The notes under the pieces: model-generated
Seen by the model: the letters and a program-made list of their open reading frames with translations, nothing else
What the model was told of the DNA's origin: nothing
Database searches by the model: none
Part shown: one piece after another, positions 3,500 to 61,717 of the stretch
Layout: each line of letters starts with the position of its first letter
How positions within the stretch are numbered: position 1 is the first letter of the stretch
NCBI GenBank assembly: GCA_964016885.1
Contig: OZ024743.1
Span: 292,392,001 to 292,456,000, forward strand
Direction: 5' to 3'
DNA: 64,000 nucleotides
DNA from: Eledone cirrhosa
Lineage: Eukaryota
Translations under genes and position numbers: made by a program

Positions 3500-10664
<7,165 letters not shown>

Positions 10665-13366
10665 GCTTTTAACAAACGCACGCAATTGCCGGCGCAGGTC
10701 GATGAACAAACAGAAGCACAATTTAGTATAGCTAGATCTAAACTTAGAAATATTATAGAACAGTATAGCAAGAAGCATAATAGAATAGATGCCCAGCAAC
10801 TGGGAGAAAAATCTGCAAATGGCTTGCGTAAGCTCATGCAGCGCTCGCTTAATGGAGAGATAGCATGCTTTCCAACAGACAAGTCTGGCAGAATGTCGGT
10901 TGACAGTCTGCCAAACTACATCCAGGCAATGCAACCCCACATCACTAACACAAGAGGAGTAACACCACAAGAGCATGAGGATAGGGAAAAAGCCCTCAAT
11001 GCCCATATGATGATGTGGACAAATATAATGCAGTCCAACAAAAGGACTGCCAAGAACTTCCAGGCCTAGAACAATGACGTGCCAGCGTTGTATGGGCTAC
11101 GAAAAGACCATACAAAGGGCAGTGACCCTGTCACAGGACCACCAACACGGCCAGTCTGTGGTACTAACATTGCTAGTAACTACAGACTTTCCTACTTCCT
11201 CTCCCTGATCATACGCCCCATCATTGAAATGTCCCCAGATGTATGTGACAGCACGGAGGACATCCCCAGCAGAATCGGCAAGAGTAACCGATCGAGGGAC
11301 CTAACAAACTGCATAATAGGGAGTATGGATGTTGTGTCCCAGTATCCATCTATTGACGTGGATTTTGCTGGGGAGAAATGCGTAGAAATGATCAGTGAGA
11401 GCAATGTTGAATTCCGTGGGATTGATACCAGTGAGCTGGGACTCCTACTTAAACTTACCTATAGTAATAATTATCTAGATACATATGGCCTTAGCAACCC
11501 GTGCCCTACAAGACCAGCAAGAGGCAGACCACCTAACATTACCTCAATAGCCAAGAAAACCCACACAGATAGATGGAACGGGTGGACCAGAGCCATACGG
11601 ACCCCCGAAAACCACGGTGAAATAATGAAAGTGATTGCACATGCGGAGGGGGCCAGCATAAAATTAACCCTTAAGGAAGATATGTTCAAATTTAATGGAA
11701 AAACATATGCCGAAGAGGAGGGAGCAGCCATTTGTGTTAGCATTGCAGCCGACATAGCTAACCTATTCATGGTATGGTGGGACAGTAGAATTAAACTTAA
11801 ACTTAAAGAACAATTAGAAGACCCCTTAACCCTGATAATGTACTCCCGCTTCGTTGATGATTTAAACATCGTAGTGAAAACAGAGAACAGTCAGGAATTA
11901 GAGAAAAACCACAATGGAAAGCATCCAGCAAATAGCTAACTCCATCCACCAGAGTATTAGAGTTACTATAGACTACCCAAGCAAACACCCCAACCATCGA
12001 TTACCCGTACTAGACACAGAACTCTGGTTAGATACCATTAATAACAAAAAACAAATCCACCATTCCCATTATGCCAAACCCAAGACTTCCAAATATCTGA
12101 TCCACCGTAATTCAGCTGTTTCGGACCATACCAAAATCAACATACTGATTGCGGATTTGGTACGGATGATGAGAAACGTGTCCCGCATGTTCAACCCTAA
12201 AGAACTAGAGAGACACATACAACACTTCATCCACCGTATGCAGTTCTCTGGTTACAATCATAGAGATAAAAATCAGAGTATATAGAGGAGCCAGAACCAA
12301 ATGGGAAAAAATGGTAAATAATGACACAAATGGAACCTGCCCCTTGTATAGGAGCAAATTTTGGAATAGAATAGAAAGAACTCGGAATAAGGCTAATAGA
12401 ATAAACTCATGGTATGATAGCAATAAATACCAGAGTGTAATCTTCATCGATACAAACCCTAGAGGTGAATTAGTTTACAAATTTAGAAGGGCCCTAGATA
12501 AACATAAACTCAATATTAAGATAGTAGAAAGACCAAGTACCTCCATAAAAACACTTATTAGTCATACATACCCTTTTCAAAGACCTCCCTGTATAGATAA
12601 TAAATGTATAATCTGTAAATTAAGCCCCCATATTAACTGTAAAACTAGAAATGTAGTATATAGCATAAGATGTACTGAAGGACAATGTAGAGATAAAAAT
12701 ATAGTATACATAGGTGAGACAGCTCGTAGTATAGGGGAACGGATAAATGAACACTGGCGAGCACTTCAAGATAGTAAAGAATCATCTGTACTCTACCAAC
12801 ATGCTAAAATAGAACATAAGGGTAAATTAGAGAAAATAGAAATAAAAATAGAATCTACACACAGAAAAGACGAAATGTTTAGACAAATCACAGAGGCAAT
12901 AGACATAAATGAACTCCAACCAAAATTAAATAGAAAACATGAATGGAACACAACATCACAACTCACGACTAAGGACAAAATGAAAACACACACGCACATG
13001 GAACAAACAAGCAACCAGTAACATATAAATAAACAAATAAATATACCAATATAAACACACACAGACACCCGGATGTAACACATGCGCAAACTAAGCACAC
13101 AACACACACAGAAAAACAAGATGGCGTAGGACAGAACAAAGGAGAGGCAGAAAAACAAAGAAAAGAATCCCCAGTCACTGAAGATGTCACAGAATGTGAG
13201 ATGAAAGAACTTTGACAATATATAAACAATCATCTGGTTGCGGAACCAACCAACCAACCGGAAATTTATAAATTCCTAAATTTATAAATTTATTATAATA
13301 AATTGAAGTGAAAGCAACTGGTGCGTGTGTTTCTTATTGGCAACATGACCCTCCCAAAGTATAACA

Positions 13367-21532: not shown

Positions 21533-21544
21533 TATATATATATA

Positions 21545-23061
21545 TCCTTTGGCACGAAAACATCGAGAAACTTAAAGAATTCCACACCCTTATAAATGGG
21601 CTCCCCTTCCCCGACATCATCATTAAGATCCATAACAAAAAAATAGAAACAGACATATACTACAAGCCCGCAGACTCCATGCAATATCTTCCTTTCAACT
21701 CTTGCCACCCTAGACACGTTAAAATTAATTTTCCCTGCAACTTAGCCAAGAGAATCTGTACTCTAGTCTCCAATAAAAACACCTGCTAATTACGGCTACA
21801 AGAACTAAAGGACACACTCATAGGCAGGGACTACCCTGCATCACTAATTGACAATGGAATCCAACGTGCTCTAAAACTCAGTAGCCAGGACCTTAGACAC
21901 CCTAAAGTAAATCAACCGAAACTAAAAGCTCTTAATACATCTCCACACACAACCTCCTCAACAATGAGGCCTTTGACACCATCCTCCAGAACATCCCTGT
22001 GTTGAAAAAGGACCATAGAATGAACCAAATCCTACGAACACACGATATCATAAAGAGCAAAAGACAATCTAAGTCAATGAAAAACATCCTAACACATGCC
22101 AAAGTACTGCCAACCACAACAACGAAACCCACATAAAAAAAATGCGATAGACCCAACTGTGGCATATGCATCAACCTAATAGAGGGTTCGGAATTCTATT
22201 TCAAAGAAGGACGTTTTATAGTAAAACACAATTTCACATGCGCATCAGAAAATCTAATATATGTATTAACTTGCTCAGGTTGTCGAGAACAATACATAGG
22301 CCAGACCAAAAACAGCCTCCGCCAACGCATGACTGTTCATAGATCCCAAATTAAAATACGGGAATACAGGAAAATACCACTGAGTGAACACATTGATACC
22401 TGTGCCGCCCAAAATCATCTCAACTTCAGAATCTTTCCCTTCTACAAATTTAAAGATAATGCCACCCACACCCAGCGCATCAGTAAGGAATCTTACTTTA
22501 TTAACAAATACGGACCCCGTCTAAACACTTCTCCCTAAGACGAACACACAACATACACACGTCAACATACATACCTACATCAGCATACATCTCTATCCAC
22601 ATATAAACACAATAACATACGTAAACACACATGTTCTATGGTGCAACACAAATATACACAAATTTGCATACCTTTTGATGTCTATAGATATAAACGTGCC
22701 GACACACATACATAAACGCACACATGCATTGCACACTGATGGGCACATACATATTTGAACACAAGTATTCCAATACGGCAAGGCCTAATGGATTCCCCTT
22801 GCAGTACGTACAGTCTGGACACTCACATACAATTGGTATTATGCCAATACTATATATCATTTCACACCTTTTATTATTGAGGTTGTTGATGTTCTATTGA
22901 GAGAATCGTTTTTACTGAAAATATCGAATAATATACACCATTTTAACAGTATCACAAAAATATATACTGGTCAACCCCCACACACACACACACATTCTCA
23001 CACACACACACACACATATATACAGACACACATACACACGCGTACATTAACATACAAAGAG

Positions 23062-23355: not shown

Positions 23356-23872
23356 TCTTAATAGGCATTTGCACTCTCAACAGGCTGCGGTTCGCACACA
23401 CATCCCTGCTGACCATTATCACAACAACGAACCTCTTTACTACTATTACACACACACACACACACATATTTGTTTTGAAAGACTTATTTTTCAGTGACTT
23501 CTCAATCAGCCGACACAAACCTACATTTGGCGCAAAATCAATTTTTAACATTCACATGACCTCTACCGACCAATCAAAATTGTTTTGACCACAAGAATTT
23601 TTGCAACACGAATTGGCACGAAACTTATTTTAATACCGCGGGAGCCCCTTTTTTCACATAAAAACAGGTAGAATTTCCAAAACTAATTAGATTAGAGCAA
23701 ATATCACGGACGCTCTATCTCAAAATTATTTTTGAAAAGCATTAGAAATGCGCAAGCGGTAAAACTTAAAACCAAAACTGAATACTAACCAATACTATTA
23801 CTAATTTTTACTTATTGCTAATTAAACTAATTTTCACTGGGAACAATTTGTCAGCATTTTCTTTTCCGTTTG

Positions 23873-31770: not shown

Positions 31771-34061
31771 TCGTTTCTGAATTTGTTTAGCAAGATTCTT
31801 TATCTGAAATCGTGTGTTGAAACCGATATTGTTATACTTTGGGAGGGTCATGTTGCCAATAAGAAACACACGCACCAGTTGTTTCACTTCAATTTATTAT
31901 ATATTTATAAATTTACAAATTTATAAATCTATAAATTTCTGGTTGGTTGGTTGGTTCCACAACCAGATAGTTGTTTATATATAGTCATAGTCCTTTCGTC
32001 ACACACTCTGTGACCTCTTCAGTGACTGGGGATTCCTTTCTTTGTTTCTGTGCCTCTCCTTTGTTCTCTCCTACGCGATTTTGTTTCTGTGTGTGTGTGC
32101 TCAGTTTGCGCATGCGCCACATCCGGGTGTCTGTGGGTGTTTATGTTCATTTATCTATTTGTTTATTTATTTATTTATTTACATGTTATTGGTTGGTTGT
32201 TTGTTCTATGTGTGTGTGTGTTTTCATTTTGTCCTTAATTGTAAGTTGTGATGTTGCTGTTCCACTCATATTTTCTATTTAATTTTGGTTGTAATTCTTT
32301 TATGTTTATTGCCTCTGTAATTTGTCTAAACATTGCATCTTTTCTGTGTGTAGATTCTATTTTTATTTCAATGTTCTCTAATTTACCCTTGTGTTCTATC
32401 TTAGCATGTTGGTAGAGTACAGATGATTCTTTATTATCTTGAAGGTCTCGCCAGTGTTCATTTATCCGTTCCACTACACTACGAGCTGTCTCACCTATGT
32501 ACACTATATTTTTGTCTCTACATTGTCCTTCAGTACATCTTATGCTATACACTACATTTCTAGTTTTACAGTTAATATGGGGGCTTATTTTACAGGTTAT
32601 ACATTTCTTATCTATACATGAGGGTCTTTGAAAAGAGTATGTATGACTAATAAGTGTTTTTACGGGGGTACCTGGTCTTTCTACTATCTTAATATTGAGT
32701 TTATGTTTATTTAGGGCACTTCTAAATTTGTAGGCTAGTTCGCCTCTAGGGGTTGTATCGATGAACATTACACTCTGGTATTTATTGCTATCATACCATG
32801 AGTTTATTCTATTAGCCTTGTTCCTAGTTCTTTCTATTCTATTCCAAAATTTGCTCCTATAAAAGGGGCAGGTCCCATTTATGTCATTATTTACCATTTT
32901 TTCCCATTTGGTTCTGGCTCCTCTATACACTCTGATTCTATCTCTCTGATTGTAGCCAGAGTACTGCATACGGTGGATGAAGTGTTGTATGTGTCTCTCT
33001 AGTTCTTCGGGGTTGCACATGCGGGACACATTTCTCATCACCCGTACCAAATCCGCAATCAGTATGTTGATTTTGGTATGGTCCGAAATGGCCGAGTTTC
33101 GGTAGATCAGATGTTTGGAAGATAATGGGAATGGAGGATTTGTTTTTTGTTGTTAATGGTATCTAACCAGAGTTCTGTGTCTAGTACAGGTAATCGATGG
33201 TTGGGGTGTCTACTTGGGTAGTCTATGGTAACTCTAATGCTCTGGTGGATGGAGTTTGCTATTTGCTGGATGCTTTCCATTGTGTTTTTCTGTAGTTCCT
33301 GACTGTTCTCTAGTGGGGGTGTCTTAACTATGATGTTTATATCATCTACGTAGCGGGAGTACATTATCAGGGTTAAGCTGTCTTCTAATTGTTCTTTAAG
33401 TTTAAGTTTAAGTCTACTGTCCCACCATACCATGAATAAGTTAGCTATGTCGCCTGCAATGCTAACACCAATGGATGCTCCTTCCTCTGGGGCATATGTT
33501 TTTCCATTAAATTTGAACATATCTTCCTTAAGGGTTAGTTTTATGCTGGCCCCTACCGCATGTGCAATCATTTTCTTCAGTTCATCGTGGTTTTCGGGTG
33601 TCCGTATGGCTCTGGTCCACCCGTTCCATCTATCTGTTTGGGTTTTCTTGGCCATTGAGGTAATGGTAGGTGGTCTGCCTCTTGCTGGTCTTGTAGGGCA
33701 CAGGTTGCTAAGGTCGTATGTGCCTAGGTAACTATTACTATAGGTAAGCTTAAGTAGAAGTTCCAGCTCACTGGTATCAATCCCACGGAACTCAACCTCG
33801 CTCTCACTGATCATTTCTACGCATTTCTCCACAGCAAAATCCACGTCAATAGATGGATACAGGGACACAACATCCATACTGCCTATTATGCAGTTTGTTA
33901 GGTCCCCAGATCGGTTACCCACGCCGATTATGTTGTGGAACCAACCAACCAGAAATTTATAGATTTATAAATTTGTAAATTTATAAATATATAATAAATT
34001 GAAGTGAAAGCAACTGGTGCGTGTGTTTCTTATTGGCAACATGACCCTCCCAAACTATAAC
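31771..34061 (-). mobile_element. PLE lineage B, 5'-truncated with inverted partial pLTR and 12-bp TSD
   Basis: ORFs 33107-33922 (RT, YSRYVDD) and 32235-33050 (GIY-YIG); inverted pLTR ~33931-34061; aatgtaaatatc at 31759-31770 and 34062-34073. Confidence 0.95.
31983..32027 (-). ncRNA. Lineage B minimal hammerhead
   Basis: agtca-CTGAAGA-g-gtcaca-gagtg-tgtgac-GAAA-ggac-TA-tgact. Confidence 0.75.
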
Positions 34062-34281: not shown

Positions 34282-36415
34282 CATAGATATATAATGTGTG
34301 AAAAATAATGACCATATGTTTAGTTTAAAATTCTGAGGTCGATGTACCAAAAACTGAGATAAAACTTCAAAAAATACGGAAATAAATAAGTATATATGTA
34401 CTTTCCGGAAAAGGAAAGAAAGAGAAAAAGAGAAGGTCATCTCAAGTTCTAGTTGATACTATAGACATACCCATGATCTTACGTGATCAACTCTGTAATT
34501 TCTTGATTCACAGAAAAAAATGTTTCCCTTGTGTTATAAAAGATTTTACTATATACATATATACATAAAAAATATATATATACATAAGAAATATATATTA
34601 ATACTCCTGCCCTCACATACATGATTATCGTTCATGTATAGAATATTATGCCTCTCTGTAACATATCCAGAGCTATACCCACACATACATATATATATAT
34701 ATATATGTATGCACACATATATGTGTACATGGACAGATAAAGTAAGCAGATAAAATAAAATATACTCTGTAATAATTCCATATTCATATTAATACATATG
34801 GCTTTTGTACAGATACAACCAGATATTAATATATCAGCACAGAGATATCAAAACGTTAAAAATATTTTCATCACTTCCTAGAGTATCTAGGGCCGTAAAA
34901 AACACAGTATGCACCCCATATCAACCACAGAAATCTTTACTTCCAGTTTATCTGACAATATATTGCCAAGTTCATTAGAAGCAATCAGAATCAAAAAGCA
35001 AACACAAAACCAAAAATTATTCAACAAAACTTATTTAGCAGAAATCATTTAAAAGATTTAGGAGACCCTGTTGTTCTACAGATGCTCTTATATTTAGTAT
35101 AGAAGTTTATCTAGCGTAAAATTTATTCAATAGATTGGGAGCATCTACATTTTAGGGTAGTTTAATTACATCATTAGTATATATTTATGAAGAAGGTTTA
35201 AAAGAAAAAGTTGAAGGAATCGAAAGATTTATCGTCCGGTTTCATACATTAATTAAATATCTTAACTAATTATACTACATTTTAAATTCATATTTATATT
35301 TAAACGTTGAGTTCAATCTATGTCTGCAGCAACTGAATAAATTGCTCCTTAAATTAAGGGAATTTTTAGATTTTAATATAAAGAATATCTCCTCCACACA
35401 GAGGTCACATGTCTCAGATGAGGAATTAAAAGGAATCCCTCTTGAGACAATATTCCAAAACATCGAATACCCAACGTTATCATGTTTAAGTTGCCAGAGT
35501 AAGCCTGATAGTGAAGTTCAAGATTTCTTGTTTGGATCTGTGAAAGAATTGTTATGATTATTGTAGCGAAGTTTAAATTCTGTCGAGGTGGAACCAACAT
35601 AGTTAAAAGAATTTAAGTTAGTTTTAACATTACAATTGTATATTATATTTTTAACTAAGCAATTGTTATTTAACGGACATTTAGATTTATTTCTACAGTT
35701 ACAGTTGTTTAATTGAATATTGTTTTGGCTATTATCGGTATTTTGGCTAGGTTTTAGATTCCTATTATTTATTCTGTTAATATTTTGTGCTAAATTTTTG
35801 GTAGACGAGTAAATTAATTTTATAGTGTGTCTATTAAAAATTGAGTGATATTTATGTGTTCTAGGGAAGCGTTTGTCAAGAGCATTAAAAAATAGTTTAG
35901 CAATGTGGGTTTTAATATTTAGTGAGAAAGGGGAGGCAAACCATATTATATTTCTAGTTCTATTTCTTTTCTGGCTTTTGTAATTATTGTAATGTTTTCT
36001 ATTATAGTTGTTAAAATTGTTACCGTAATTAAAATTGTTATTATTTTGGTTAGTTTGCCTATTATTATTGATGTACTTAATTTTATCAATATATCCTGCT
36101 CTAGCTAACGCTTCATTGCAATACTGCGCTTTTTCGTCGAAAATATTTTTATTAGATGAAATTCTTGAGATACGTTCTTGAACAGAGTTCACTATAGTAT
36201 TTTTAAAACTGTTTATATATTGTATTTTATCTGAAGAAGGCATGCCATATTTTTAATATGGCATCCCCGAAATATGTATAATTAAATAAATATGGTTTTA
36301 TAAATATAGTTTCCATTTGTTTAATATCGTATATATACTCCAAAAATTGTTGAGTGCTTTATATCAGTTATAAAATATTTACTTGTTGTAACCCAACAAT
36401 TTTAAATAAAACTTT

Positions 36416-40235: not shown

Positions 40236-40532
40236 TTGGTTATATATAAATATATATATGTATATGTATATTTATATATATATATATATATATTTGTATA
40301 TATGTGTGTGTGTGTGTGTGTGTATGTACTTATATATATATATAAGTTGTATATATATATAAATATATATACAAACGTGGACACCAATATGGGTAAGGTT
40401 ATACTCACAGATCCACGCGCAAAAGTTTATAATTATAGATATACAAATAATTATATAAATATATATATATTAGAAAGTGAGGTTTTTTTTTACAAAATGA
40501 AAAATAACCGAGGTGTCCTACACGAGTGAAAG

Positions 40533-40820
40533 TATAAAGAAAAAGAGATGAAATCGAAAATGCAACTGAAGTCTTATTTTTTTTTAAAATATATATATTT
40601 ATTTGGTTCCTTTACCGGTTTCGCAGTTCTTCTCCTTTTCAAAAGGTGAGTTGAGATGGAGGGTGTGTGGTTTTTCTCACATCTGAGAAAAACCACAGAC
40701 CCTCCATCTCAACTCACCTTTTGAAAAGCAGAAGAACTGCGAAACCGGTAAAGGAACCAAATAAATATATATATTTTAAAAAAAAATAAGACTTCAGTTG
40801 CATTTTCGATTTCATCTCTT

Positions 40821-40830
<10 letters not shown>
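40533..40830. repeat. Near-perfect ~298-bp palindrome carrying a variant HHR in each arm
   Basis: ~147-bp arms, ~4-nt loop at ~40680, only a few mismatches. Confidence 0.93.
40717..40754 (+). ncRNA. Minimal hammerhead with U3-A8 core (UUGAAAA)
   Basis: cctt-TTGAAAA-gcag-aagaa-ctgc-GAAA-ccgg-TA-aagg; all stems paired. Confidence 0.7.
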
Positions 40831-40859
<29 letters not shown>

Positions 40860-42669: not shown

Positions 42670-42760
42670 AAATGAAATTGAATATGCAACTGGAGTCTTT
42701 TAAAAATAATTATTTGTTTTACAGGTTTCATGGTTCTTATGATTTTCAAAGGTAAAATTG
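42666..42760 (-). repeat. Diverged copy of the 40533 arm with a decayed UUGAAAA hammerhead
   Basis: atgaaat(t/c)gaa(t/a)atgcaactg(g/a)agtctt shared; minus strand cct-TTGAAAA-tcataagaaccat-GAAA-cctg-TA. Confidence 0.6.
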
Positions 42761-44645: not shown

Positions 44646-45217
44646 GGAAAAGAATGAAACGAAATTTCATTTTTCACTCTTAGTACGGCTGATACCTAAA
44701 TATAAGTATGTATACGTACATACATATATGTGTACAGACGTACAGTAGTATGTATATATATACATACATGCACACATATATATATGTACGTATGGGTTTA
44801 CCGAATATTTATTATAATGTTCGGTTTATTTGTAAACAAACAGCCCGAATTAAGCCGTACAGTGCTCGTCAACCATCGTCGCCCATTTGTTCAACACTGA
44901 CATAGAACGATGTACTAGTTTCAAGCTTATTAGCTATCGTCAGCATCGTATACCTTTCTGGCAAATGATTGAACGTTTGAAAGTATATACTTTCATTATG
45001 CACATTAACGGCTGAGCAGCCTAATTTGCATATCGAGTGTGTCAGTCGGCTGGACGCACCGTAAACGATAAATGGAAAAGAATGAAACGAAATTTCATTT
45101 CTCACTCTTAGTACGGCTGACACCTAAATATAAGTATGAATACGTACATAAATATATGTGTACAGACGTACAGTAGTATGTATATATATATACATACATG
45201 CACACATATATATGTAC

Positions 45218-60215: not shown

Positions 60216-61717
<1,502 letters not shown>

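Follow-up and report, generated by a model that had tools for sequence, protein, structure and literature searches.

What is a near-perfect palindrome with a hammerhead-like motif in each arm, how did it come about, and does its RNA cleave itself? The locus that raises these questions lies at positions 40533-40830 of a 64,000-nt stretch of the Eledone cirrhosa genome (contig OZ024743.1, 292,392,001 to 292,456,000), which was analysed as a whole and is termed the window here. Very probably, a young and very abundant Penelope-like element (PLE) has inserted there in a TA repeat, in minimal, head-to-head form, and the pLTR hammerheads of the two arms, in which a U3-A8 pair stands in the core, likely cleave weakly and as dimers in full-length tandem transcripts, while being buried in a fold-back here.

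A preliminary description of this DNA had claimed a palindrome at these positions, and the palindrome proved real: its inverted arms (40533-40679 and 40684-40830) are 147 nt long, differ at three sites (40539, 40634 and 40665) and leave a gap of 4 nt between them. The extent of the insertion had been underestimated, since the left arm continues through a 63-nt tail to position 40470 (Table 1). Comparison with the natural element in locus L066 identifies the 4-nt 'loop' (40680-40683) as element sequence belonging to the left arm. The arm mismatch 40539/40824 falls on a polymorphic site near the element end (21 C versus 25 A among copies), and the mismatches at 40634 and 40665 are private to the left arm. 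Further inverted-repeat pairs occur in the window at 38547-38727/39524-39704 (93%) and 40352-40470/41360-41478 (97%), and the left end of the palindrome abuts one arm of the latter.

Table 1 Features of the palindrome and related hammerhead motifs in the window
Feature	Position	Strand	Remark
Type I minimal hammerhead motif, U3-A8 core, palindromic stem III	40717..40754	+	Right arm
Mirror motif in left arm	40609..40646	-	Core at 40642; G.G mismatch in stem II
Decayed motif, older lineage-A subfamily	42712..42756	-	Core letters kept, stems broken
Lineage-C motif, U3-A8 and C13 (GCAA)	23729..23764	+	Downstream of RT/GIY-YIG remnant at ~21544-22538
Second lineage-C motif, U3-A8 and C13	20819..20855	-	Faces away from motif at 23729
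PLE tail, 63 nt	40470..40532	-	Left arm only
Left arm, 5'-truncated 3' end (pLTR) of lineage-A PLE	40533..40685	-	Arm-specific substitutions at 40634 and 40665
Right arm, 5'-truncated 3' end of same lineage-A element	40684..40830	+	Tail-less; ends in (TA)n
Microhomology at head-to-head junction, 2 nt	40684..40685		Comparison with natural element in L066
Left (TA)n target remnant	40460..40469		Sequence
Right (TA)n target remnant	40831..40855		Sequence

The parent element was found through the motif. Its 33-nt core has 11,195 exact matches in the 3.0-Gb assembly (1,796 contigs) and none in the reversed control, hence the motif is not a chance occurrence. Many of the best 30 matching loci share upstream sequence, which in one case (L024) extends to the end of a GIY-YIG gene, and in twenty 10-kb stretches around such copies long open frames precede the motif. 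In L066, 775 open codons carry an RVT_1 match (E 1.6e-6; 28.5 bits, slightly short of the curated cut-off at 29.6) and a GIY-YIG match (E 5e-6, above its cut-off) preceded by a C-x4-C-x2-C linker; some 1,050 nt separate the end of the open stretch from the motif downstream of it. Partial tandem copies (L061, L063 and L174) have the motif both 3' of the ORF and 5' of the next start. In tandem copies it lies 199 nt ahead of the ATG of the upstream frame, which is the pLTR arrangement, and the 63-nt tail runs into the 5' UTR and the start of ORF1. Median pairwise identity over the 3' 500 nt of the lineage-A ORF is 99.2% (17 copies), a value that overstates youth as best hits were chosen.

Judged by their domain matches, the longer copies carrying RT and GIY-YIG place the palindrome in an EN+ PLE family, and three hallmarks of such elements, namely 5' truncation, an inverted 5' copy and a tail at one end, are present. 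Judged by features alone, it resembles the Neptune and Nematis EN+ PLEs (PMC8557442) in its RT, C-terminal GIY-YIG, CX2-5CxxC linker and (TA)n targets, and likewise in its inverted 5'-truncated copy with a tail at one end; the tail is 63 nt long here, unlike the 30-40 bp given there. Non-LTR retrozymes, described as same-strand tandem repeats with a hammerhead in each (bioRxiv 10.64898/2026.07.22.740005), were rejected as identity, as the copies here stand head to head on opposite strands.

The right-arm motif consists of stem I (40717-40720/40751-40754) and stem II (40728-40731/40737-40740), 4 bp each, with U3 at 40721, A8 at 40726, GAAA at 40741-40744, A17 at 40750 and the palindromic ACCGGU; the predicted cut is after 40750, with GUA as triplet. 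The lineage-A core fits a type I minimal hammerhead at U4, G5, A6, N7 and A9, at G12, A13 and A14, and at A15.1-U16.1, H17 and G10.1-C11.1, and a Watson-Crick pair between positions 3 and 8 is available as U3-A8, as far as complementarity goes. When a strict descriptor was run over the whole window, the right-arm motif was the sole match with Watson-Crick letters at 3 and 8; three others were unpaired there. The earlier statement that every stem is kept applies to the right arm and fails for the left, where stem II contains the G.G mismatch. The relative noted at 42717-42752 indeed shares the core letters, its stems being broken and the copy decayed (MFE -0.2 kcal/mol; best match 84% to L200), so taken alone it argues little against decay. 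The lineage-C pLTRs, said to have the same core, do have U3-A8 and read GCAA rather than GAAA, which had gone unmentioned.

No Rfam hammerhead covariance model matched the motif at E<=10, nor was a hammerhead among the matches listed in the Rfam scan. The models also miss a motif with canonical core at 44943, thus the failure to match is not caused by U3-A8. Rfam matches to miRNA families and MALAT1 were dismissed, being below thresholds and, for the miRNAs, far under the gathering scores.

According to folding predictions, stem III has a probability of 0.0 in the monomeric 38-mer, and two 38-mers cofold at -20.3 kcal/mol, close to the double-hammerhead fold (-18.9). The cofold geometry around ACCGGU thus provides a palindromic stem III that permits a dimer; the gain from dimerisation is ordinary, 157 of 500 shuffles being as strong. 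Over the whole right arm, the MFE structure is another fold and stem II has a probability of 0.04. In a transcript across both arms this value drops to 2e-17, as a hairpin of -230 kcal/mol is predicted to form. Besides, with the two motifs of the palindrome on opposite strands, dimerisation inside a single transcript is impossible. Given this burial and orientation, the modelled folds indicate that the palindrome locus is likely inert and that any activity would belong to tandem full-length elements. There, following established hammerhead chemistry, the self-complementary ACCGGU would form stem III between two motifs, and U3-A8 would take the place of the C3-G8 Watson-Crick pair.

But does the motif cleave anywhere? 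It may descend from a hammerhead and be catalytically dead in these lineages, its fold being retained to serve the protein of the element as a binding or promoter signal, a reading that we consider unlikely while giving it some weight. It draws on the weak stems, on a lizard PLE hammerhead whose catalytic mutants had no effect on insertion in vitro (PMC11167929), and on lineage C, which grew to about 4,000 copies despite the fixation of C13. Against it, the other searched core positions stay hammerhead-like in three lineages in which the free N7 varies, and U3-A8 ribozymes are reported to be active in vitro (PMC3088659).

Lineage C deserves a closer look in this regard. In place of the conserved A13 it has C in 3,941 of 4,014 genome copies, so that the canonical A13 is absent from its motif, and its stems are kept, with changes on both sides. 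It is also the older lineage, with a median identity of 94.2% among 9 ORF ends. A change at A13 strongly lowers hammerhead cleavage. A13 belongs to the consensus hammerhead core (PMC3088659, PMC7151607), and a natural C13 variant was not found in the literature searched (including PMC3088659, PMC6155905 and PMC11014351, with incomplete coverage). It appears doubtful that the doubly deviant core (U3-A8 plus C13), fixed before the burst to about 4,000 copies, still cleaves; if so, loss of G8 might free position 13, or the protein of the element might support the fold, and lineage C would be a natural core variant without counterpart found in print. The alternative to cleavage with an unusual core is PLE spread without cleavage, which would match the in vitro result of PMC11167929; lineages A and C would then form a natural pair demonstrating such spread. 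Lineage A with A13 and lineage C with C13 hence offer a ready comparison on whether ribozyme cleavage matters for PLE retrotransposition.

Returning to the reading of U3-A8 as a working substitute for C3-G8, we looked at its constancy within and between lineages. When positions 3 and 8 were left free, the genome yielded 10,748 matches. All 62 non-U3 copies (35 C, 15 G and 12 A by hand count) retain A8, which leaves C3-G8 at 0 of 62, and the 38 non-A8 copies include no C3-G8 in an otherwise exact context. Most copies are therefore neither CUGANGA nor unpaired at 3 and 8, in line with what the preliminary description had expected of the family. Two lineage-A copies reading C3-G8 were set aside, since one looks like the junction of a truncation and the other like an old copy with multiple mutations. 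The uniformity within lineage A is a founder effect of its recent burst and not the result of selection.

Between lineages, the evidence is of another kind. Lineages A, C and E are all PLEs with proteins about 53-58% identical (lineage C about 45-66% by segment and 55% over 485 aa; lineage E 57.6% over 373 aa). A looser pattern had 2,922 matches, and lineage E (L195, L197 and L202, ~1496-1538) was the commonest type in the first 100 of them; it has a UUGAUAA core and U.U or U-A as first pair of stem II. With a pattern that itself required U4, G5, A6, A9, G12, A14, A15.1 and CCGG, and with nine unassigned matches excluded, U3-A8 was found in 88 of 94 copies of lineage A, 48 of 48 of C and 13 of 13 of E. 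At N7, lineages A and C have A and lineage E has U. Pair 10.4-11.4 reads G-C in A (82/94) versus U-A in C (48/48), pair 2.3-1.3 reads C-G in A (89/94) versus U-A in C (46/48), and 8 of 13 E copies have A-U at pair 2.2-1.2. This gives two clear two-sided stem changes between A and C and a partial one in E, drawn from few independent lineages. Stem I shortens to 3 bp in C and 2 bp in E. In the 3' non-coding DNA of A and C, the single alignable stretch is a 121-nt island that ends in the motif. The earlier argument against random decay was thus well founded, as U3-A8 is family-wide and kept in three lineages with N7 varying. Two further candidate lineages had one match each and hence are not families, and a single metagenome match, on an unrelated bacterial-looking contig, was taken as chance.

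A search for a C3-G8 sister family with the same stem III (13 matches versus 2 in the control) found none, which means that this clade does not itself display the 3-8 covariation. The absence of such relatives, together with the position of the core in T and A runs, is what can be said for U3-A8 as chance drift in A/T-rich sequence that was frozen in one master copy. We regard this explanation as very unlikely: the pair is kept in three lineages whose remaining non-coding DNA fails to align, and the same change has been published from an unrelated host (PMC4209133).

That publication also settles the question of novelty. Cervera and De la Pena (2014, PMC4209133) describe 'U3-A8 instead of C3-G8' in the hammerheads of the Schistosoma PLE Cercyon, with ~1,300 hits, and a PLE-linked entry in their supplement, S. 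mansoni(4), reads UUGAAAA. Natural U3-A8 hammerheads were reported by Perreault et al. (2011, PMC3088659), who state that such pairs are active in vitro. The suggestion that a U3-A8 set in PLEs could be new therefore does not stand, with ~1,300 PLE-associated motifs in print since 2014 and natural U3-A8 since 2011, and the Eledone motif family is a fresh example of the published PLE U3-A8 hammerheads. Its value is modest and lies in a very large, young and homogeneous U3-A8 family in another animal genome.

Cercyon of S. mansoni shares with the family described here the pLTR location, type I topology, U3-A8, truncated copies, opposite-strand pairs and dimer requirement; PMC4209133 reports opposite-strand pairs 100-700 bp apart, mostly truncated copies, and low, dimer-dependent cleavage for a min-hammerhead. 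Unlike in Cercyon, stem II here has 4 bp, and in lineages A and C no extra nucleotide follows A9; a palindromic insert of 4 nt lies in stem III, GUA is the cut triplet, and the copies are near-identical and about ten times as many. The PLE hammerheads of Drosophila, mosquito, shrimp and rotifer in the same paper are similar in their short palindromic stem III, short stem I and high conservation in a recently active family, whereas the cores listed there are C3-G8. The covariation is the same as in the natural U3-A8 hammerheads of PMC3088659, several scattered examples for which the relevant part of that paper gives no PLE link, in contrast to the PLE family found here.

The expectation that a strict CUGANGA descriptor would miss this class is borne out by the text of the published cuganga descriptor. 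Applied to 80 samples of 10 kb each, placed at even intervals (800 kb), our descriptor gave 16 matches, namely 10 U3-A8 (seven of them with C13), 2 C3-G8 and 4 A3-G8, the last with weak stems; the reversed control gave 6 matches and no U3-A8. By this sample, with 10 of 16 matches U3-A8 and 2 of 16 C3-G8, descriptors confined to cuganga undercount PLE ribozymes. U3-A8 is common in this genome yet not universal, and 'PLE-wide' was too broad a term, with canonical CUGANGA motifs present both in the genome and in the window. In the latter, type I motifs reading CUGACGA lie at 44943 (-) and 18958 (-), with stem I of up to 6 bp and a palindromic stem III.

How did the palindrome arise? Element ends come in two kinds, with or without the 63-nt tail (45 tailed, 36 tail-less, 1 unclassified), and (TA)n nearly always adjoins them. 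Among 130 loci there are 26 head-to-head pairs, and in 24 of the 25 that could be classified exactly one arm has a tail, as in the palindrome of the window, where it sits on the left arm. Rare core variants are common to both arms in four pairs (three non-U3, one non-A8), as expected if both arms derive from one template. Craig et al. (2021, PMC8557442) have described PLEs in which 5'-truncated copies are inverted and one end bears a tail, and a PLE protein in vitro cuts and extends both target strands, with reverse transcription beginning at two sites that bracket the tail (PMC11167929). We thus propose that the RT-endonuclease of the element would nick both strands of a (TA)n target, that reverse transcription, primed by each 3' end, would begin at either of two sites separated by 63 nt, one including and one omitting the tail, and that the two short cDNAs would be joined via the 2-nt microhomology.

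It is highly improbable that the palindrome is instead a functional unit of its own, a MITE-like element or hairpin-RNA gene propagating in palindromic form. The near-perfect 147-bp hairpin (-230 kcal/mol), the frequency of short inverted pairs among the 33-mer matches listed and the weak miRNA-family matches would fit such a unit. Across loci, however, motif-to-motif distances in head-to-head pairs range from 42 to 8,180 nt with locus-specific junctions, longer pairs contain an RT gene, and the Rfam matches are far under gathering scores. An assembly artefact, conceivable given the very high copy number of the repeat and read evidence that covers the right arm only, can practically be dismissed, since the arms differ at three sites, a single tail is present and 24 of 25 pairs are asymmetric in this way.

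Contigs from DNA runs that span the right arm contain the element, with no core variant among those listed; three of the four runs have few contigs. In one DNA run, a two-letter variant at 40716-40717 accounts for roughly half of the coverage; it cuts stem I to 3 bp. It breaks pair 2.4-1.4 and is seen in 15 of 94 lineage-A copies.

Further observations concern the coding part of these elements and their neighbours. ORF1 overlaps the RT-EN frame in -1 register around a U UUU UUA heptamer (L066 ~4660-4670; L174 ~4255-4265), which is present in lineages A and C and kept in 10 of 12 copies; the frames make a programmed -1 frameshift likely. No strong structure was seen downstream of the heptamer in lineage C, and for some types of PLE an ORF1 frameshift is noted in the legend of a figure in PMC8557442. 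On the minus strand of the window, another RT/GIY-YIG-like PLE lineage is represented by several broken copies at 7307-13021, 32235-33964 and 60463-61221, with no clear hammerhead adjoining them by our descriptors. Remnants of a further endonuclease-type retroelement lineage were recognised by eye from translations at 5862-6134 and 35518-36252 (-).
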